This document shows, piece after piece, positions 3,343-46,396 of a DNA stretch of 64,000 bases (within the stretch, counting starts at the first letter, position 1; each line of letters begins with the position of its first letter). The notes below the pieces were generated by a model. That model did no database searches and had not been told where the DNA came from. It was given only the letters and a program-made list of their open reading frames with translations. The DNA is taken from the NCBI GenBank assembly GCA_016873615.1, contig VGWX01000001.1, positions 53,734 through 117,733 on the forward strand, given 5' to 3'. The stretch is from Nitrospira sp. Its GTDB lineage: Bacteria > Nitrospirota > Thermodesulfovibrionia > Thermodesulfovibrionales > SM23-35. Both the position numbers and the translations under genes were made by a program.

Positions 3343-4561
3343 ATTGGCCTGCAATAAAGCCCGAAGACCAGGCCCATTGAAGGTTGTATCCGCCGAGTTG
3401 TCCTGCAACATCGATAACCTCTCCTGCAAAATAGAGACCCGGCACCTTCTTTGCTTCCATAGTCCTGGATGACAGTTCATCCGTATCAATTCCGCCGGCT
3501 GTAATCTCTGCCTTTCCATAGCCCTCGGTACCTGCAGGCCTTATCGTCCAGTGGTGAAGCTGATGAGCTATATCCTTAAGCTCCTTTTCTGTATATTGGC
3601 AGAGAGGACGTATTGGGGCATTTAATTCAGACCACCTGTGGCTGAACCTCCTCGGAAGGTATTCTGAGAGAAGGTTGCTCAACTCAGTCCTGCGCCTGCG
3701 CTTCGACATGAAAAGTTCATAAGCATTCCTGTCCGGCATCAAATCGATAGTGATTTTATCCCCTTTATCCCAATATGATGACACCTGAAGAATAGCAGGC
3801 CCGCTCAACCCTCTGTGGGTAAAAAGGACTTCCCCGCGGAACTGCCTTCCTCTGCAGCCAACAATGGCATCAAACGAAGCGCCGCTCAGTTCACTGAACT
3901 TTTCGAGATCCTGCCGGCTGAATACAAGCGGGACCAATGCCGGTTTTAGCTGGGTAACCTTCAGACCAAATCTTTGAGCAGTCCTGAATCCCATGTCCGA
4001 TGCCCCAAGTTCAGGATAAGATAAACCGCCTGTTGCGATAACGAGTGCAGATGCTTCTATTTTGTTTAAATTCGTTGAAACTTTGAAATGGCCGGCCTTT
4101 GTTATACTTCTGACTCTGCAATCTACGCTAATTTCAACCCCTGCTTTGCGGCATTCCTCATAGAGCATCCTGACAACCTCCCCTGAAGTCCCCTGACAAA
4201 ACAGCTGTCCTTTTTCTTTTTCGTAATATTCTATTCCATACCTTTCTGTTAGGCTTATAAAATCATGAGGTGTAAAACGTGCGAGGGCGGATTTGCAGAA
4301 ATGGGGGTTGGCGGATAAATAATTGTCGGGCTGCAGATTTATGTTCGTAAAATTGCAGTGGCCGCCCCCTGAAACCCTTATCTTTCTTGCAATCTTATCC
4401 ATATGCTCAAGGACAATAACCGAGCGGTTCCTTTTGCCTGCCTCTATTGCACACATAAGGCCGGCAGCTCCCGCTCCTATGATCACAACATCCTTTTTAA
4501 TCAGAGTCTTTTTATACCGGGGCAATTCCTTTTCAGCCGCCTTTAATCTGGACATATCCAT
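3335..4561 (-). CDS. HI0933/YhiN (BaiN)-like FAD-dependent oxidoreductase
   Basis: 408 aa with N-terminal dinucleotide-binding motif VVIIGAGAAGLMCA. C-terminal GGYNLQWAWSSG is typical of this family. Confidence 0.8.
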   Translation of the reverse strand: MDMSRLKAAEKELPRYKKTLIKKDVVIIGAGAAGLMCAIEAGKRNRSVIVLEHMDKIARKIRVSGGGHCNFTNINLQPDNYLSANPHFCKSALARFTPHDFISLTERYGIEYYEKEKGQLFCQGTSGEVVRMLYEECRKAGVEISVDCRVRSITKAGHFKVSTNLNKIEASALVIATGGLSYPELGASDMGFRTAQRFGLKVTQLKPALVPLVFSRQDLEKFSELSGASFDAIVGCRGRQFRGEVLFTHRGLSGPAILQVSSYWDKGDKITIDLMPDRNAYELFMSKRRRRTELSNLLSEYLPRRFSHRWSELNAPIRPLCQYTEKELKDIAHQLHHWTIRPAGTEGYGKAEITAGGIDTDELSSRTMEAKKVPGLYFAGEVIDVAGQLGGYNLQWAWSSGFIAGQYA

Positions 4562-25837: not shown

Positions 25838-26818
25838 TTAACCAATCTCTTCTATTATTGCAGCAGCTAATAAAGGGAACATAATCTCATGGTGTCCGGT
25901 CAGGGCATAACACGTGCCTCTATTCATGGTCGGCCTTCTGAGCACATTCTCTGCAGGCCTGTAATGCTGGATAAAGTCCATGTTGACCGTTGTAATATTC
26001 TCAACCTTATTGCCGAGATTTCTCGCTACTGTCAATGCTTTCAGGAAAACCTCGGGCATGATGACGGCAGAACCGAGATTGATGTAAACACCGCCTTCAA
26101 GATCAGATACAACAGCGGAAAAAAGCCTGAAGTCCCTGAAGCTCCCCTCTCCTATAGCCATACCGTCAGCCTCAGGATGCATATGAATAATATCAGTGCC
26201 GATTGCGACATGCACGGTTGCAGGGATGCCAAGCTCATAGGCATTGGCAAAAATACTTCTGTTCTTAAACCTGAAAGAACTTCTGTAAATCATCTCCCCT
26301 ACGGATTGTCCTATGCCGAATCCCTTCTTAAGACCATTTTTTATGGCCTTATTCAGATATGTCCCGGTCTCGTCTGCCATTCCAAACGTTCCTTTGCAGA
26401 GCTCTTTTCCGACATCTTCAGAAGTGTGCCCTATATAAGACAACTCAAAATCATGGACTATACAGGCGCCGTTTGTGGCTATCGCGGTTATAACTCCCTT
26501 TTTCATAAGGTCTATGATCAGGGGTGAGAGACCCACTTTGATCGGATGTGCTCCCATACCAATAACTACAGGCCTGTTATTCTTTCTTGCCTTAACTACA
26601 GCAGCAACAGCAGCCTTAAAGTTTTTCGCGGCAAGGATGTCCGGGAGTGAATCGAGAAATCTCCGGAATGTTTCACCTTTTGCAGGAATTGACGCAACAA
26701 CAGCTAAAGAGACTTTGCTTTTTCTTTTACTTATTGAACAGGTCTTAACCTTTTTTAGTGATACAGGTTTATATTTTGTCATGGAATTAATATTACCACA
26801 AAAGCCAAATTGAAGCAT
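25838..26818 (-). CDS. deoxyhypusine-synthase-like family protein (tentative)
   Basis: 326 aa. MGAHPIKVGLSPLIIDLMKKGVITAIATNGACIVHDFE resembles the DHS pattern (SGLR..I..L....VD..VTT.G..E.D). Assignment is from memory of the family pattern only. Confidence 0.45.
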   Translation of the reverse strand: MLQFGFCGNINSMTKYKPVSLKKVKTCSISKRKSKVSLAVVASIPAKGETFRRFLDSLPDILAAKNFKAAVAAVVKARKNNRPVVIGMGAHPIKVGLSPLIIDLMKKGVITAIATNGACIVHDFELSYIGHTSEDVGKELCKGTFGMADETGTYLNKAIKNGLKKGFGIGQSVGEMIYRSSFRFKNRSIFANAYELGIPATVHVAIGTDIIHMHPEADGMAIGEGSFRDFRLFSAVVSDLEGGVYINLGSAVIMPEVFLKALTVARNLGNKVENITTVNMDFIQHYRPAENVLRRPTMNRGTCYALTGHHEIMFPLLAAAIIEEIG

Positions 26819-26906: not shown

Positions 26907-26997
26907 AAGGGGAGGGGATTAAGGGGAGGGTGAAAGAAATAAATATCTAACACCCTCTCCCTAACCCTCCCCCCTCAAGGGGGGAGGGAAATATCTG
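26907..26997. repeat. G-tract/C-tract palindromic repeat cluster in a divergent intergenic region
   Basis: aaggggaggggattaaggggagggtg (26907-26932) versus caccctctccctaaccctcccc. A perfect palindrome ccctcccccc-tcaa-ggggggaggg lies at 26965-26988. aaatatc flanks both. Confidence 0.6.
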
Positions 26998-27065: not shown

Positions 27066-27554
27066 ATGCCATTTCAGGATATATTGGACAGGCATGAAGA
27101 TATCAGAAAAACGGAATATCATCATGAAATCCTTGTAAAAGGTTCAGACTTTCAGGCCTGTAAAAAAAAGGTTTTGCTTTTTTTTGAAAAATACCAGCTG
27201 GTCCGTTACTCTTACATTGCGATATTGGAAAATAAATCCCTCTCTGCTGCAGACTCAGGGTTTGAGGACAGACTGAATGAAGCAATCCTGAAAAACCGGC
27301 AGATAGTCAATGATCTTATAGAGAAACTTCAGGCAGAAGAGATAAAAACCCTTAATGACCTGAAAGCGCTTCCTCATGGCTATAAGTCAAAGATGCTGCA
27401 TGTCATCACTCATTTCCTGGATGGGTTCTTCGGGATAGATACATATTTTTACAGTCTTGAAGACGACTCCCACTGGGTTACAGAAGAGTCTCTTGAGAAA
27501 ATCAATGCCTCGCCTTCTGATTACTGGCTTTTATCCTTAGAGGCTAAAATTTAG
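27066..27554 (+). CDS. hypothetical protein (162 aa)
   Basis: Clean ORF with GAGGG SD. No recognisable motif. Confidence 0.5.
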   Translation: MPFQDILDRHEDIRKTEYHHEILVKGSDFQACKKKVLLFFEKYQLVRYSYIAILENKSLSAADSGFEDRLNEAILKNRQIVNDLIEKLQAEEIKTLNDLKALPHGYKSKMLHVITHFLDGFFGIDTYFYSLEDDSHWVTEESLEKINASPSDYWLLSLEAKI

Positions 27555-28838: not shown

Positions 28839-29386
28839 TGATAAAGAATAATGCCGACTATTTCCATAGCCATATCTCTCATGGCCTTTTCTGAGGCCAG
28901 CTCTTTAGATGCGATGAGGTTATTCAATGGTCCGGGGCCTGAAAAAGAGATTATAAACGGAGAGCCTGTATTTTTTAATTCCTTAATCTTTCCTGAAGGG
29001 TCTGTAAGGATGAAATTCCCCTTGATTACTACTTCATATTCTGTTGCTATGTCTGATTTTTCCGAGAGTATGAGCAATTCGAAATGATTAATTCTACCGC
29101 TCAGTTTATATCCTGCATCACGATTAACAGAAACCCCATGTTTTAAAAACTCATCTGTAAGCGCCCTATAGAGTATGTCCTGAAGTTTAGGCTCAATAGT
29201 TACATTCTCTATTTTTCCGATCTGGATTGCCTGAAAAGGAAGAGATGCCTTGTTCTGGATCGAATAACCACAACCAAATAAGCATAGAGCATAGAGCATA
29301 GAGCAAAGAATGAGGAAAGAGCACAAGATATAACTAATAGTTTTTTTGCTTTCAGCTCTTTGCTCTTCGCTCTTCGCTCTCATCAT
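28835..29386 (-). CDS. lptE: LPS-assembly lipoprotein LptE
   Basis: 183 aa with lipobox LFGCGY, positioned between leuS and holA as in Proteobacteria. The N-terminal 40 codons are encoded by an inverted-repeat element (see findings). Confidence 0.7.
   Translation of the reverse strand: MMRAKSEEQRAESKKTISYILCSFLILCSMLYALCLFGCGYSIQNKASLPFQAIQIGKIENVTIEPKLQDILYRALTDEFLKHGVSVNRDAGYKLSGRINHFELLILSEKSDIATEYEVVIKGNFILTDPSGKIKELKNTGSPFIISFSGPGPLNNLIASKELASEKAMRDMAMEIVGIILYQ
29281..29383. repeat. imperfect inverted repeat (gagcatagagc x3 ... gctcttcgctcttcgctc) forming the 5' end of lptE
   Basis: agcatagagcatagagcatagagcaaagaatgagg (29281-29315) versus agctctttgctcttcgctcttcgctct (29354-29380). Confidence 0.6.
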
Positions 29387-31869
29387 TCCCCGATAACTAT
29401 GTTAACCAATTTCCCCCTGACAATAATAACCTTTTTGATTGTTTTGCCGCCAATAATTTCTCTGACCCTGTTATCATCAAAGGCGATCTTTTTTATCTCA
29501 TCATCAGGGATACCTGCGGTTATAATGATCTTTGATCTCAGCTTGCCGTTAACCTGCACAACAAGTTCGATCATATCTTCTTTTGCAGCCTCATTATCCC
29601 ATTCGGGCCATTTCTGCTCAAATATGCTCGGCTTGTTTCCAAGCGCACCCCAGAGCTCTTCCGAGATATGGGGAGAAAATGGCGAGAGGAGAAGGAGGAG
29701 CTGTTCTATTGCAAACTTAAGAATACCCCATTCTTCATCCTTTTTCGGTTCAAATGCAGTTATTTCGTTTGCCAGTTCCATCAATGCTGCTATAGCTGTA
29801 TTAAAGTGGTACTCCCGCTCGATATCCGTTGTAACCTTTTTAATTGTATGATGAGTCTTTCTATACAAGAGTAAAGTCTTGGCAGGTTCTCCGATCACTT
29901 TACGTTTTAAACTTAAACCTTCACGGTTTTTATATACGATCCCCCATAATCTGTTAAGGAATCTGTATGCGCCGTCAACGCCTTTGTCCGACCAGTCAAG
30001 GTCTTTCTCGGGCGGGGCAGCAAACAATGAAAACAGCCTTGATGTATCAGCCCCGTATTTCCGGATTAGATAGTTAGGGTCTACAACATTGCCCTTTGAC
30101 TTTGACATCTTTGAGCCATCTTTAATGACCATGCCCTGAGTGAGAAGATTCTGAAAAGGTTCATTGATATTCAGAAGGCCAAGATCACGGATCACTTTTG
30201 TAAAAAACCTCGAATACAGGAGATGAAGCACTGCATGCTCAACGCCGCCTATATACTGGTCGACAGGCATCCAGTATTTGAGTCCTGATTCCCGTGTTAT
30301 AATTTCCGATTTTAGATCTATATCTCCCTTTTTAAAGCAATACCTGATGAAATACCATGAGGAATCGACAAATGTGTCCATTGTATCGGTCTCACGCCTT
30401 GCCCTGCCTCTGCATTGAGGGCATTCGGCAAATAAAAAAGCCTCTGATTCAAGCAGCGGGGAGCTGCCCTTTCCGGTAATCTTCACATTTTCAGGCAGTA
30501 TAACCGGCAGATCTTTTTCCGGAACAGGAACAATTCCGCACCTATCACAGTACAATACAGGTATAGGTGTGCCCCAATATCTCTGCCGTGAAATGCCCCA
30601 ATCCCGTAATTTATAGTTGACAACAGCTTTCCCTAACCCTTTTTCTTCTATGAATTTAACTATCTCTTTCTTCGCAACATCGCTATGCAGACCAGTGAAT
30701 TGGCCGGAATCAATCAGCACCCCTTCATCTTCGTAAGCCCCGGCAAGGAGTTCAGCATCCGGCAATCCCCCTGTCCCCCCCCTTAGTAAAGGGGGGTTAG
30801 GGGGGATTTCTGGCATAATAACCACCTGAACAGGCAGACCATATTTCTTTGCAAACTCAAAATCCCTCTGGTCATGGGCCGGCACAGACATAATGGCGCC
30901 TGTTCCATATTCCATGAGGACAAAGTTTGCCACATAAATAGGCACTCTTTCACCGTTTAATGGGTTAGTCGCACTGAAGTCAGTAAGAAGTCCCACCTTC
31001 TCGGTTTCTTTGCCATATTTTGCTTTCACCGCATCAAGGGCGCCTTTATCCTTAACGAGTTTTTCTGACAGGGGATGTCCAGGTGCGATACACATAAACT
31101 TAACACCGAATAAGGTATCAGGCCTTGTGGTAAATATCCTCAATTTCTCTCCGATCTCTTCAACCGGAAAATCAACTTCTACGCCCTCGCCCTTGCCGAT
31201 CCAATTTTTCTGCATCAGGACTACCCTTTCAGGCCATCCATCCAATTCGTCACAGCTCTGCAGCAGCTCCTCTGCATATTGGGTGATCCTGAAAAACCAC
31301 TGTTCAAGCTTCTTCTGGATAACCAGGCTGTCACAGCGCCAGCATTTTTCATCAATAACCTGCTCATTGGCAAGGACAGTTGTACAGGAGGGACACCAGT
31401 TGACAAAAGAATATTTTCTGTGCGCGAGCCCTCTTTCTAACATCTTCAGGAAAAACCACTGGTTCCATTTGTAATACTCAGGGGTGCAGGTCGTCACCTC
31501 TCTCTCCCAGTCATAACTCAGTCCCATGCGGTTAAGCTGTATCTTCATGTTATCAATATTCCTGCGTGTCCATTCTGACGGATGCACATCATGCTTAATC
31601 GCAGCATTCTCAGCAGGAAGTCCGAACGCATCCCATCCCATCGGATGAAGCACATTGTATCCGTGCATCCGTTTATATCGTGCGATCACATCACCGATAG
31701 CATAGTTTCTTACGTGACCCATATGAATCTCGCCTGAAGGATAAGGGAACATCTCAAGGCAGTAAAATTTTTTCTTATTGAGGGAGCCATCTGTTTTATA
31801 AAGTTGTCTCTCCGACCAGTATTTCTGCCACTTTAATTCAACTGCCTGTGGATCATATCTTTCTTCCAA
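29383..31869 (-). CDS. leuS: leucine--tRNA ligase
   Basis: 828 aa with HMGHVRNY (HIGH) and KMSKSKGN (KMSKS) motifs. Confidence 0.95.
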   Translation of the reverse strand: MEERYDPQAVELKWQKYWSERQLYKTDGSLNKKKFYCLEMFPYPSGEIHMGHVRNYAIGDVIARYKRMHGYNVLHPMGWDAFGLPAENAAIKHDVHPSEWTRRNIDNMKIQLNRMGLSYDWEREVTTCTPEYYKWNQWFFLKMLERGLAHRKYSFVNWCPSCTTVLANEQVIDEKCWRCDSLVIQKKLEQWFFRITQYAEELLQSCDELDGWPERVVLMQKNWIGKGEGVEVDFPVEEIGEKLRIFTTRPDTLFGVKFMCIAPGHPLSEKLVKDKGALDAVKAKYGKETEKVGLLTDFSATNPLNGERVPIYVANFVLMEYGTGAIMSVPAHDQRDFEFAKKYGLPVQVVIMPEIPPNPPLLRGGTGGLPDAELLAGAYEDEGVLIDSGQFTGLHSDVAKKEIVKFIEEKGLGKAVVNYKLRDWGISRQRYWGTPIPVLYCDRCGIVPVPEKDLPVILPENVKITGKGSSPLLESEAFLFAECPQCRGRARRETDTMDTFVDSSWYFIRYCFKKGDIDLKSEIITRESGLKYWMPVDQYIGGVEHAVLHLLYSRFFTKVIRDLGLLNINEPFQNLLTQGMVIKDGSKMSKSKGNVVDPNYLIRKYGADTSRLFSLFAAPPEKDLDWSDKGVDGAYRFLNRLWGIVYKNREGLSLKRKVIGEPAKTLLLYRKTHHTIKKVTTDIEREYHFNTAIAALMELANEITAFEPKKDEEWGILKFAIEQLLLLLSPFSPHISEELWGALGNKPSIFEQKWPEWDNEAAKEDMIELVVQVNGKLRSKIIITAGIPDDEIKKIAFDDNRVREIIGGKTIKKVIIVRGKLVNIVIGE
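30764..30808. repeat. 45-nt G/C-tract palindromic element inside leuS (in frame)
   Basis: aatccccctgtccccccccttagtaaaggggggttaggggggatt. It is near-identical to 36605-36648 and encodes EIPPNPPLLRGGTGGLPD in LeuRS. Confidence 0.75.
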
Positions 31870-35932: not shown

Positions 35933-37681
35933 ATGCCCCAGATTAAGGTTCTGCCAAGAGATTTACGAAACAAGATTGCAGCAGGAGAGGTGATCGAAAG
36001 ACCTGCTTCTGTTGCAAAGGAATTGATAGAAAACTCAATTGATGCAGGGAGTACCGACATACAGATTGACATCCTCTACGGAGGAAAGCGTCTTATAAAG
36101 GTATCTGATAACGGGACTGGAATGGGGAAGGAAGACGCACTACTCTGCTACGAAAGACATGCAACAAGCAAACTGGGTTCTGAAGACGACCTTTTCAACA
36201 TTAAGACAATGGGTTTCAGGGGAGAAGCCCTTCCATCCATCGCCTCTGTAACAAAAATGAAGATAATTACCGGAGAAAAAGGTTCCACTTCAGGTCTGTC
36301 AATCGAATTAGCAGGAGGCGAGGTTCGGGAGATAAAGGATTCCCCTTCTGCCGGCACAATGGTTGAAGTCAGAGACTTGTTCTTTAATACGCCTGCAAGG
36401 AAAAAGTTTCTGAAATCGAACAGCACTGAACTTTTTCACATTATAGATACACTCACAAAAGAGGCCCTTTCCCACTGGGAGATCGGCTTCAGACTTCGTT
36501 CTGACAACAAGGAAATCTTAAGCCTTCCTTTAGCCTCCGGCCCTAAGGAACGCATTCTGCAGGTCTACGGCGAAGAGTTTATGAAAGGCCTCACAGAGGT
36601 GAATAATCCCCCCTTGCCCCCCTTTAGTAAAGGGGGGTTGAGGGGATTTGTGAAAAGCCGGGATGAGGGACAATTGATTAATGTAAAGATGAATGCATTC
36701 ATCTCAAAAGTCAATAATTTCAGAAATATGAAATCCCATCAGTTCATCTTTATAAACAGAAGACCGATAAAGGACCAGTCAGTGTCTCACGCAGTATATA
36801 AAGCTTACGAAGGCATAATCCCCCATGACAAGCATCCCGTCTTCTTTCTATTTCTCGACGTTGATCCTGCCAGTGTGGATGTGAATGTCCATCCGGCAAA
36901 ACGTGAGGTCAGATTTGAGAATAAGGAATTGGTCTATCGCTTTATAAATAGCAGCATAAGAGAAGCTGTAAGGAGCGAGCGGGCTGAATATACTAAACAA
37001 TTCACAGGAATTCCTGCGATAGATTTTCCCCCGCCTCATCCGGAGATTTCATCATCGCCTTACCACTTACCCCTTCCCACTCATGAATCTCAAATATCCG
37101 AAAATCTCGAACTGGCCTACAGGGCATTGTTGCCGTTCATATACCTCGGAGACACATTTATTGCCCTTTCAGGTAAAGGAGGGCTTACGCTCATCGACCA
37201 TCATGCTGCCCATGAAAGGATTCTCTATGAAAGATTTCTAAGTGGGATTAACCTTAATTCCCATCAGCTGTTATTCCCAAGGCAGGTAAAGCTTTCACAT
37301 AAAGAATACATGGTTATCCTTCAGAACCTCCATATACTCATAGACTTTGGAATTGAGACAGATGATTTTGGACATGATACTATTATTGTTCGCTCCTTAC
37401 CCGATGTTTTAAGAGAAGCTGATATAAGAGGGATTTTCTCGGATATTGCATCATGTATTATCGAAGGTGTTGCGCCTGACAAATCTTTTAAAAAGGATCT
37501 TGCTGCACGGATTGCATGTCACAGTTCAGTAAGGGGCAAAGAAATCCTCAATCAGGAAGAACTCTCAAACCTTATTGCCGACCTTGAGCAGACAGAATAC
37601 CCTGACCAGTGTCCTCACGGCAGGCCGACAAGAATCTTCTTTTCTCTGGACGATCTGAAGAAGATGTTTAAGAGGAAATGA
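35933..37681 (+). CDS. mutL: DNA mismatch repair protein MutL
   Basis: 582 aa with GHKL ATPase motifs (AAGEVIERPASVAKELIENSIDAG, DNGTGM) and the C-terminal dimerisation/endonuclease region. Confidence 0.95.
   Translation: MPQIKVLPRDLRNKIAAGEVIERPASVAKELIENSIDAGSTDIQIDILYGGKRLIKVSDNGTGMGKEDALLCYERHATSKLGSEDDLFNIKTMGFRGEALPSIASVTKMKIITGEKGSTSGLSIELAGGEVREIKDSPSAGTMVEVRDLFFNTPARKKFLKSNSTELFHIIDTLTKEALSHWEIGFRLRSDNKEILSLPLASGPKERILQVYGEEFMKGLTEVNNPPLPPFSKGGLRGFVKSRDEGQLINVKMNAFISKVNNFRNMKSHQFIFINRRPIKDQSVSHAVYKAYEGIIPHDKHPVFFLFLDVDPASVDVNVHPAKREVRFENKELVYRFINSSIREAVRSERAEYTKQFTGIPAIDFPPPHPEISSSPYHLPLPTHESQISENLELAYRALLPFIYLGDTFIALSGKGGLTLIDHHAAHERILYERFLSGINLNSHQLLFPRQVKLSHKEYMVILQNLHILIDFGIETDDFGHDTIIVRSLPDVLREADIRGIFSDIASCIIEGVAPDKSFKKDLAARIACHSSVRGKEILNQEELSNLIADLEQTEYPDQCPHGRPTRIFFSLDDLKKMFKRK
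36605..36648. repeat. 44-nt G/C-tract palindromic element inside mutL (in frame)
   Basis: aatccccccttgcccccctttagtaaaggggggttgaggggatt. It belongs to the same family as 30764-30808 and encodes NPPLPPFSKGGLRGF. Confidence 0.75.
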
Positions 37682-41338: not shown

Positions 41339-41424
41339 GCCGAAGTGGTGGAACCTGGTAGACACGCACGTTTGAGGGGCGTGTGGGGTAACCCGTGCGG
41401 GTTCAAATCCCGCCTTCGGCACCA
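41339..41424 (+). tRNA. tRNA-Leu (anticodon GAG), type II with long variable arm, CCA encoded
   Basis: Hand-folded. Acceptor GCCGAAG/CTTCGGC. Anticodon stem CACGT/GCGTG with loop TTGAGGG (GAG at 41374-41376). 13-nt variable arm. T-arm GCGGG-TTCAAAT-CCCGC. Discriminator A plus CCA. Confidence 0.9.
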
Positions 41425-41529: not shown

Positions 41530-41578
41530 CAATCTCGTCAAATCCCTCCTTTGGAAAAGGGAGAATTTGACGAGATTG
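41530..41578 (-). terminator. long hairpin downstream of the 36-aa ORF
   Basis: Perfect 14-bp stem caatctcgtcaaat (41530-41543) / atttgacgagattg (41565-41578). A U-rich stretch follows on the minus strand. Confidence 0.45.
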
Positions 41579-45754: not shown

Positions 45755-46324
45755 TATCCCTTTTTCCTTACGTACCGTATAAACCAGATAAGGAAACCCG
45801 CAGCAAGAACACAGCCTGCTATATATGGCTCATAATGTTTTACATCGCCGAGCAGGTTCTTAAGTGTGGCTCCGAAGAAATATCCGCCGCTCGTGCATAT
45901 GACAGCCCATATAAGGCAGCTAATGAACTGAAGAGTAAAGTATTTTAGCGTTCCCATACGCGAAAGGCCAAGCACCGCTGCACTCAAAAGCCTGAAACCA
46001 TAGAGCCACTGGCTTATGAAGAGTGCGGCAGTTCCATACTTCGCCATCAGGGCCTCCAGTTTTAAGAGATTAACCTTCACAAATCTCCGGATCAATGTAA
46101 AAAAAGCCTCTCTTTTATATAGGGCAATCAGGAAAAAGGCGCCATGTCCTATATATGAAGCTGCAGTCGATACAATTACAACTGTTACTGCATCAAGATG
46201 CCCTGTGTAAGCAAGGAATCCTGCAGCTATAAGGACGCTTTCCCCTTCAAAAAAAGTCAGAATGAATATAGCGATATAGCCGTATCGTGTTATGAACTCT
46301 TCCAGAAAATCCCCCCCCGAACAT
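45751..46324 (-). pseudogene. DedA-family membrane protein, frameshifted in a C8 (G8 on the coding strand) homopolymer
   Basis: ATG 46324-46322 is followed by TTC then G8 (46318-46311). The DedA frame (...DFLEEFITRYGYIAIFILTFFEGESVLIAAGFLAY...) is open from there to 45751 but is offset by one nt from the ATG. With G7 it would read MFGGDFLEEFITRYGY.... Confidence 0.75.
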
Positions 46325-46330
46325 AAAAAA

Positions 46331-46355
46331 GGGGATGCCGGTTTACCGCATCCCC
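46331..46355. terminator. bidirectional rho-independent terminator
   Basis: Stem GGGGATGC / GCATCCCC, flanked by A6 (46325-46330) and T5 (46356-46360). It sits between the ferredoxin gene and dedA. Confidence 0.6.
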
Positions 46356-46396
46356 TTTTTCAATTTTGAAACAAAATACTCACATCTTCATAGATG

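Follow-up and report, generated by a model that had tools for sequence, protein, structure and literature searches.

What is a 45-nt palindrome of C- and G-runs doing inside the reading frame of leuS, and how did it get there? We addressed this question in a 64,000-nt stretch of Nitrospira sp. DNA (contig VGWX01000001.1, positions 53,734 to 117,733 of the forward strand), here called the window, in which the palindrome lies within the leucyl-tRNA synthetase (LeuRS) gene and a similar sequence lies within mutL. The comparisons described below make it likely that the 45-nt palindrome belongs to a dispersed repeat family whose members are very small, palindromic, non-coding and non-autonomous, similar to repetitive extragenic palindromes (REPs) or Rickettsia palindromic elements (RPEs). 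Judged from alignments of orthologues, the element is shown to have entered leuS, and separately mutL, in an ancestor of this Nitrospirota lineage, and it has since been inherited within the gene.

The palindrome in leuS and its counterpart in mutL

The leuS sequence AATCCCCCTGTCCCCCCCCTTAGTAAAGGGGGGTTAGGGGGGATT is laid out as a nested hairpin, AAT-C5-TGT-C8-TTAGTAAA-G6-TTA-G6-ATT (Table 1). Within the LeuRS open reading frame (ORF) it is translated as ...MPEIPPNPPLLRGGTGGLPDAELL..., and LeuRS residues ~355-369 (IPPNPPLLRGGTGGL) are element-coded. The LeuRS translation includes ...VVIMPEIPPNPPLLRGGTGGLPDAELLAGAYEDEGVLIDSGQF..., and one of the tryptic peptides predicted from the sequence to cross the element junctions is ...VVIMPEIPPNPPLLR. 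The mutL copy is translated as NNPPLPPFSKGGLRGF, in a stretch that includes NNPPLPPFSK. Compared in inverted sense, the leuS and mutL copies are 96% identical over a 23-nt core and 88% identical over 33 nt.

In the window the core pattern of the palindrome was matched at the leuS and mutL sites only (4 matches, both strands), against an expectation of 0.20, and none of 100 shuffles reached four matches. A blastn-short search across the 64 kb found no copy of this family (family 1) beyond these two. Folding of the DNA gave -16.1 kcal/mol for the leuS copy (z -3.3) and -14.9 kcal/mol for the mutL copy (z -4.3); on the mRNA strand the values were -31.1 and -28.8 kcal/mol, respectively. Of the Pro codons in seven genes around the leuS copy, 18% are CCC, and of the Gly codons there, 22% are GGG, so the codons of the element are not the usual ones there. 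Sequence, ORF, translation and chance test agree on a palindrome within leuS, as an initial annotation of this DNA had described it. The sister element that it placed in mutL was also recovered, with a net insertion of 39 nt rather than 44.

Table 1. Positions of the palindromic elements and their host genes in the window.
Feature	Position	Strand	Evidence or context
Family-1 G/C-tract nested palindrome in leuS	30764..30808	-	sequence, fold, translation, chance test
Outer arms of the leuS copy	30764-30772 and 30800-30808		
Inner arms of the leuS copy	30777-30784 and 30789-30796		
Loop of the leuS copy (AGTA)	30785-30788		
Host gene leuS (leucyl-tRNA synthetase, 828 aa)	29383..31869	-	Pfam tRNA-synt_1, tRNA-synt_1_2, Anticodon_1
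Family-1 palindrome in mutL, AATCCCCCCTTGCCCCCCTTTAGTAAAGGGGGGTTGAGGGGATTT	36605..36649	+	sequence, fold, orthologue alignment
Host gene mutL (582 aa)	35933..37681	+	P0121 100% identical, annotated MutL
Family-2 G/C-tract palindrome, CCCTCCCCCC-TCAA-GGGGGGAGGG	26965..26988	.	intergenic, between divergent ORFs 25838-26818(-) and 27066-27554(+)

Age, structure and turnover of the LeuRS and MutL loops

Alignment of LeuRS orthologues and mapping onto a solved structure, the check that the initial annotation had proposed, placed the element as a loop insertion in the CP1 editing domain. The loop is absent from the LeuRS of T. thermophilus, E. coli and many Nitrospirota orthologues. In T. thermophilus LeuRS (PDB 1H3N) only RPGEPLPEP occupies the element site (residues ~363-372, CP1 editing domain). 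An AlphaFold2 model of the window LeuRS was poor overall (predicted local distance difference test, pLDDT, 60.6), and only its well-modelled CP1 domain was used (pLDDT 82-92); there a coil segment with pLDDT <50 at residues 358-373 overlaps most of the element-coded residues. The leuS element probably lengthens a variable loop of the CP1 editing domain, where it would be translated and near-neutral.

The element-coded segment IPPNPPLL(K/R)GGxGG(L/F) was found with the same junctions in the LeuRS orthologues P0001-3, P0005-10, P0012 and P0117. Identity to the window protein ranges from 93% to 74% among the orthologues with the element-coded loop. The element is decayed in P0028, which encodes PPAPHLLRE, and in P0033. 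In P0001 (93% identical) the palindrome is eroded (ATCTCCCC.., inner right arm GTGTGGG) with the frame intact. Because the copy is common to orthologues down to 74% identity, the leuS insertion is, on this sequence comparison, old and not recent. In the nearest element-free leuS allele, that of P0004 (91% identity), 18 nt stand against 48 nt in the window, which is longer there by a net 30 nt (10 codons). We considered that this empty allele might have arisen from the element by deletion and rejected the idea, as simple deletion could not yield its loop, DSERRTLN, and the distant empty orthologue P0086 has a matching one. An insertion in leuS, as the initial annotation had it, is therefore upheld by the orthologues that lack the loop; it was not a clean 45-nt event, and it is old and common to many orthologues.

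The mutL site gave a simpler comparison. The second subdomain of the N-terminal ATPase fragment begins with a beta-hairpin, and alignment to PDB 1B63 and 5AKB places the element where this hairpin starts, between residues 223 and 253 of E. coli MutL. Most of the 120 closest MutL orthologues have 561 aa and EVNAEAEGIRMKSYVTK at the element site, and a second allele class has a longer hairpin, ...FVENRDEGQWINVKMNAFVSK. P0163, of the longer-hairpin class, is without the palindrome, and its empty-site DNA reads GAGGTTAATAA|ATTTGTGGAAAAT. The window mutL and P0142 have 39 extra nt exactly at the bar, TCCCCCC..GGGGG. Relative to P0163 the net inserted DNA in the window is 36607-36645 (39 nt, 13 codons), read as N(N)PPLPPFSKGGLRG. 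No target duplication is visible in this empty/filled pair; AA and ATT, the terminal letters, pre-exist at the empty site, and the junction, AATAA^ATTT, is A/T-rich. A metagenome scan for more MutL empty sites with a degenerate empty-site pattern gave 0 matches. Other mutL copies have changed: that of P0139 is decayed, with a C>G change and a compensating G>C change in its outer arm, that of P0135 has lost one arm, and that of P0138 is compound, with three C-runs and four G-runs.

The window MutL combines a long 'type B' beta-hairpin with the element, and its closest database relatives, P0122-P0131 (79-86% identity), are all of the short 'type A'. The MutL hairpin region itself seems to have been exchanged between lineages.

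The LeuRS loop holds more than one kind of insert. Many other LeuRS orthologues have PPTHPSPSRGEGKGGG at the same loop position, some with two inserts. The DNA behind PPTHPSPSRGEGKGGG is a second nested G/C-tract palindrome (family 2), CCCCCCACCCATCCCTCCCCC-TCGA-GGGGGGAGGGTAAGGGAGGGGG, and the intergenic palindrome of the window has the same core as this in-frame element. In the leuS of P0056 a family-2 element stands in tandem with a perfect family-1 copy. In a neighbour-joining LeuRS tree built with the loop left out, the empty P0004 was nested among filled relatives, and P0013, with family 2, was sister to P0007, with family 1. The leuS genes of these two (L136 and L137, respectively) are 96.3% identical in DNA and carry the different elements in the same loop, and just upstream of the loop lies a patch of 78-83% identity. 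The loop swap together with this patch, the signature of a short recombination tract, argues that loop alleles have been exchanged between lineages, and such exchange would account for the patchy distribution. This one case supports the view that alleles with the element, without it or with a different element have been shuffled among relatives by short-patch homologous recombination. By these comparisons the LeuRS loop is a hot spot of element turnover. The LeuRS lengths of one clade, 815-870 aa, largely reflect such inserts, and the loop offers natural filled, empty and swapped alleles in near-identical genes.

A dispersed family and its reading frames

Species-representative genomes were scanned with the pattern CCCCCYTTASTAARGGGGG, and the census figures given here are those among the matches listed. 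The family-1 architecture was found at at least 119 loci in several phyla, so the element is not unique to leuS and mutL. With the absence of the loop from unrelated LeuRS, this leaves the initial annotation standing on both of the points by which it could have failed. A tally of record titles gave ~45 Nitrospirota and ~35 Cyanobacteria loci, the latter including the isolates Lyngbya PCC 8106, Crocosphaera watsonii WH 8501 and Fischerella PCC 7521. The remaining loci belong to Thermodesulfobacteriota, Planctomycetota (Brocadia, Scalindua), Nitrospinota, Ignavibacteria and others, and several metagenome-assembled genomes (MAGs) gave 3 loci each.

In order, a family member consists of (A)AT-C5-7, a spacer of 2-5 nt, C5-8, the loop TT(T)-NNN-(A)AA, G5-8, another spacer and G5-7-AT(T); it is ~40-45 nt long and folds into a nested hairpin. 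The complete form, AATCCCCCC-NNN-CCCCCC-TTTASTAAA-GGGGGG-NNN-GGGGGGATT, is that of many copies outside the Cyanobacteria; those of Cyanobacteria tend to finish with GATC. The 44 full copies span 37-43 nt from T to A and always have AA..TT flanks, with the termini AAT...ATT. Run lengths vary among copies, and loop variants are plentiful (e.g. TTTTCCAAA, TTTGCTAAA and TTAATAA). Two 91-nt repeats of locus L076 (1897-1987 and 3350-3440) are identical save for a flipped loop, TTTAGTAAA versus TTTACTAAA, which suggests loop flipping by recombination between the arms.

Several other arrangements were seen at individual loci. Otherwise identical repeats at 2649 and 2735 of L036 also differ by an inverted hairpin loop. 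In a Microseira sp. locus (L088, 27-160) the cyanobacterial variant is arrayed in tandem, with at least 4 repeats of CCCCCCCTTAGTAAGGGGGGGATAGACCCCCTG at a period of 33 nt. In L083, direct repeats of 69 nt and 26 nt that include the element (2299-2392 and 3958-4102) bracket a 368-aa ORF for which no Pfam or NCBIfam match was found; an HTH_7 protein is encoded upstream of it, and the whole could be a composite mobile unit.

The element was found both in genes and between them. Among the 97 copies at sufficient distance from the ends of their loci, 59% are at least 30 codons deep in an ORF, versus 79% of random control positions, and 40% versus 46% are at least 100 codons deep on both sides. Avoidance of coding DNA is thus only mild. 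Real Pfam domains flank the element on both sides in 19 of the 20 host ORFs tested. The host genes encode AlaRS (twice), MetRS, PurL, alanine racemase, chorismate synthase, radical-SAM enzymes, a CbiG-methylase fusion, GH3 and GH57 glycosyl hydrolases, Ser/Thr kinases, a beta-CASP nuclease, an MFS transporter and a molybdopterin oxidoreductase. By our reading of the domain coordinates, about half of the Pfam-mapped copies fall between domains. The chorismate synthase of L082 (1052-2407) has two element-derived inserts, PPLPPFSKGGMGGF and SPPHPPLAKGGSRGG, relative to the Aquifex enzyme (1Q1L), and the alanine racemase of L053 has a linker insert of ~30 residues relative to solved homologues.

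When copies with at least 100 open codons on both sides, on the same strand, were considered, 39 of 42 were in frame and stop-free and 3 were not. This is strong evidence, at the level of sequence, that such genic copies are translated and filtered by selection. Whatever the orientation, and whichever of the four open frames is used, the peptide reads (N)PP.(P/S)P(L/F)x(K/R)GGxGG; by direct reading, the other two frames, one per orientation, have TAG-TAA or TAA in the loop. The initial annotation had explained tolerance by the absence of stops in the used frame and by a length that is a multiple of 3. The stop-free frame holds. The length does not explain why the frame is preserved, as intragenic and intergenic full copies have the same length spectrum of 37-43 nt, and a multiple of 3 is no property of the element. 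Selection on the whole junction is what would keep the frame. The annotation's wider proposal is supported, namely that LeuRS has an in-frame copy of a dispersed palindromic element and MutL a sister copy, and that a stop-free reading frame is the reason why it is tolerated. Intergenic copies, both orientations, four frames and the CCC/GGG codons argue for an origin at the DNA level rather than the protein level.

Rfam gave no family at the gathering threshold and only noise at E up to 10, so the element is not a described RNA. A literature search by DNA string and by encoded peptide returned no relevant match. The core was found in only 7 contigs of IMG/VR; phages are therefore no obvious reservoir, and we rejected a phage vector in that role.

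The closest parallel in behaviour is that of RPEs. As later accounts summarise them, RPEs (Ogata et al. 2000, Science 290:347) are in-frame palindromes in many unrelated functional genes; they are translated as additional segments on the protein surface and have been regarded as selfish DNA that protein folding can accommodate; most are ~100-150 bp, RPE-4 and RPE-6 are shorter, with a CGTC tag, and they are described from Rickettsia only and with no homopolymer tracts (PMC10969869, PMC3733652). The present element is likewise an in-frame palindrome in functional genes (leuS, mutL, and 39 versus 3 in the census), with translation predicted from its sequence. It is set apart by these RPE descriptions, being 40-45 nt long, with C- and G-runs, no CGTC tag and free-living hosts of several phyla.

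REPs are 20-40 nt G+C-rich multi-copy stem-loops, mostly extragenic, with a GTAG (or CGTC) tag, and GTAG REPs flank genes of REP-associated tyrosine transposases (RAYTs; PMC3733652, PMC12306157). [quoted passage not shown] The present element is also a palindromic stem-loop, slightly longer than a single REP, and its nested arms resemble a head-to-head REP dimer. Unlike REPs, it is genic in about half of its copies, has no GTAG or CGTC beside the leuS or mutL copy (the 44 full copies end AAT...ATT) and is conserved in sequence across phyla. Y1_Tnp was not among the top families of 121 neighbouring ORFs, a comparison of low power, as about one such gene is expected per genome.

The Nostoc repeats SDR1-8, which Elhai et al. 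reportedly described in 2008, are said to be non-coding mobile hairpins of 21-27 nt with nested self-insertions and no known enzyme, confined to a coherent cyanobacterial subgroup. Our element is also a very small hairpin with nested or compound copies (P0138, P0056), and Cyanobacteria are major hosts. Compared by description only, it differs from the SDRs in being longer, in its G/C tracts and in reaching Nitrospirota, Planctomycetota and Thermodesulfobacteriota.

Yeast mitochondrial GC clusters (e.g. GC42) are ~42-nt G+C-rich mobile hairpins in which stems are more conserved than loops; compound palindromes form from them by merging and shuffling, with no established mechanism of mobilisation (Wu & Hao 2015, PMC4478555). 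The element is likewise a G+C-rich hairpin of ~40 nt in an A+T-richer genome, and fungal double-hairpin elements are comparable. GC clusters differ from it in being organellar and mostly intergenic, with an AG target dinucleotide, and have no sequence relationship to it. [quoted passage not shown] The element resembles MITEs in being non-autonomous and extending host proteins, and differs in that the whole of it is one palindrome with no known parent insertion sequence and that no duplication was found at the MutL site (one site). By analogy with IS200/IS605 elements, the missing duplication, the A/T-rich junction and the constant AA..TT flanks would fit that type.

Spread of the element and competing explanations

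We propose that a mobile palindrome would be tolerated in coding DNA by virtue of its composition. C-runs would read as Pro and G-runs as Gly in every frame and both orientations. Because stops occur only in the loop, in one frame per orientation, four of the six readings would give a flexible peptide, PP-x-PP-(L/F)-x-(K/R)-GG-x-GG. Insertion in a surface loop or an inter-domain linker would do little harm, as when the mutL element would extend a beta-hairpin of the N-terminal domain, and copies that break the frame or the fold would be purged by selection. We infer that tolerance is due to the Pro/Gly coding together with the loop or linker location, and that the genic copies are near-neutral. 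The weakest step is mobilisation, which would be in trans because the element has no gene of its own. The route we favour is hairpin-dependent single-strand transposition of the IS200/IS605-RAYT (HUH/Y1) type rather than MITE-type cut-and-paste, because the clean MutL site (one site) has no duplication and the A/T flanks are constant.

Several observations weigh against this picture. No transposase was found between or beside the multi-copy loci examined; the ORFs in L076, L083 and L133 are ParA-like, NagA-like, metallo-beta-lactamase-fold, HTH and GemA. A Pfam scan of the 121 ORFs that lie up to 400 nt from a copy showed no enrichment of Y1/RAYT or any other transposase or mobile-element family, a test of low power, as about one or a few such genes are expected per genome. 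A clean empty/filled pair was obtained only once, in MutL, and the window leuS differs from its nearest empty allele by having 48 nt in place of 18 nt rather than by simple insertion. Presence and absence on the LeuRS tree are patchy, and a single insertion event cannot be reconstructed there without recombination. The compensatory arm change in P0139 could mean that the hairpin is under selection, which a purely neutral passenger does not predict. Copies are only modestly dense in this genome (two of family 1 and one of family 2 in 64 kb), and the census, limited to the matches listed, includes MAGs, some of them possibly contaminated.

Selection on the hairpin itself, as a functional cis-element in ribosome pausing, transcript stability or the binding of a nucleoid or repair protein, would make the peptide a by-product. 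The very stable RNA hairpins (-29 to -31 kcal/mol), the leuS copy of the window, still an almost perfect palindrome despite its old insertion, the change in P0139, the copies that fall between domains and the REPs inside repair genes noted by Di Nocera et al. (PMC3733652) would all fit. However, orthologous copies decay freely (the GTGTGGG arm of P0001, the lost arm of P0135, the PPAPHLLRE of P0028), the close relatives P0004 and P0163 do without the element, the LeuRS site can hold a different one, the host genes are functionally unrelated, and there is neither a U-tract nor an Rfam match; we regard a cis-element as unlikely. We give about as little credence to a history without transposition, in which copies were spread or homogenised by gene conversion or short-patch exchange and new ones arose by hairpin-driven template switching at A/T-rich sites. 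The divergent patch beside the swapped loop of P0007 and P0013, the patchy LeuRS tree, the loop flips between otherwise identical repeats, the nested or multi-arm versions (P0138, P0056), the L088 array and the missing transposase speak for it. Such exchange requires flanking homology, though, and cannot put the same 40 nt into unrelated genes, intergenic sites and different phyla. The clean 39-nt MutL insertion is without homology-bearing flanks, and loops and arms so nearly alike in different phyla speak for a copied template over repeated de novo origin.

The remaining explanations concern what the sequence does once in a gene. A slippage switch (phase variation) of leuS or mutL, which in mutL would be a mutator switch, is suggested by the runs C8, G6, G6 and C5 of the leuS copy and by run lengths that differ between family copies, implying slippage over evolutionary time. 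It is very improbable, as leuS is essential and its off state lethal, all orthologous leuS and mutL copies seen are in frame, and so are 39 of the 42 census copies with long open frames. An ordinary lineage-specific loop, selected as a peptide, with the DNA palindrome incidental, would account for a peptide conserved in about a dozen LeuRS orthologues. It is contradicted by the census, in which the same DNA occurs in mutL, intergenic DNA and unrelated genes, in both orientations and four frames, and is hardly credible given also the minor share of CCC and GGG codons in the seven window genes, the folding z-scores of -3.3 to -4.3 and the absence of the loop from solved LeuRS structures. Bypass (byp) elements derived from GC clusters in yeast mitochondria offer a parallel for a third idea, that the element is not translated at all and that ribosomes skip it or it is removed from the mRNA. 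The stable hairpin would suit such a role; yet frame and stop absence are strongly kept (39:3), and decayed orthologous copies keep the frame and evolve like coding sequence, which would be needless if they were skipped, so that we consider bypass or removal most improbable.

Read as a translated passenger of a dispersed repeat family, the leuS copy is, on the comparisons made here, old, fixed and ordinary in itself. In-frame palindromes are a known kind of phenomenon (RPEs, intragenic REPs); this family itself appears to be undescribed. A broader reading, which we offer tentatively and consider rather doubtful, is that it is an undescribed pan-phylum class of ~40-nt G/C-tract nested-hairpin mobile elements, with mild coding avoidance, near-constant sequence in Nitrospirota, Cyanobacteria, Planctomycetota and Thermodesulfobacteriota, and hot spots in the LeuRS CP1 loop and a MutL beta-hairpin, at which different element families replace one another between genomes that are 96% identical there. 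Were this true, the family would have to have passed between phyla repeatedly, by way of an as yet unrecognised trans-acting mobilisation system, or else to depend on some conserved process of its hosts, and it would be a general, ongoing source of new Pro/Gly loops in bacterial proteins. In-frame selfish palindromes have so far been treated mainly as a Rickettsia curiosity plus scattered intragenic REPs. The presence of this family in essential housekeeping genes (aminoacyl-tRNA synthetases, mismatch repair, biosynthesis) makes it a recurrent source of protein loop insertions. It also confounds gene calling, alignment, phylogeny and structure prediction in MAG-rich phyla, and it is a tractable case for asking how a gene-less 40-nt sequence spreads.

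A few features of the window stand apart from the element. A C8 run at 46311-46318 was considered as a further copy and rejected; the nearby hairpin at 46330-46358 is an ordinary terminator-like structure and not a copy of the element. This hairpin, just past the run, reads GGGGATGC-CGGTTTACC-GCATCCCC followed by T5. The segment 8001-16000 has a G+C content of 36%, versus 40-46% elsewhere, with positive GC skew, and may be foreign or otherwise distinct. A tRNA-Leu(GAG) gene lies at 41339-41424, and ~100 nt downstream of it, at 41530-41578, is a 23-nt inverted repeat with 87% complementarity (CAATCTCGTCAAATCCCTCCTTT / AAAGGGAGAATTTGACGAGATTG).

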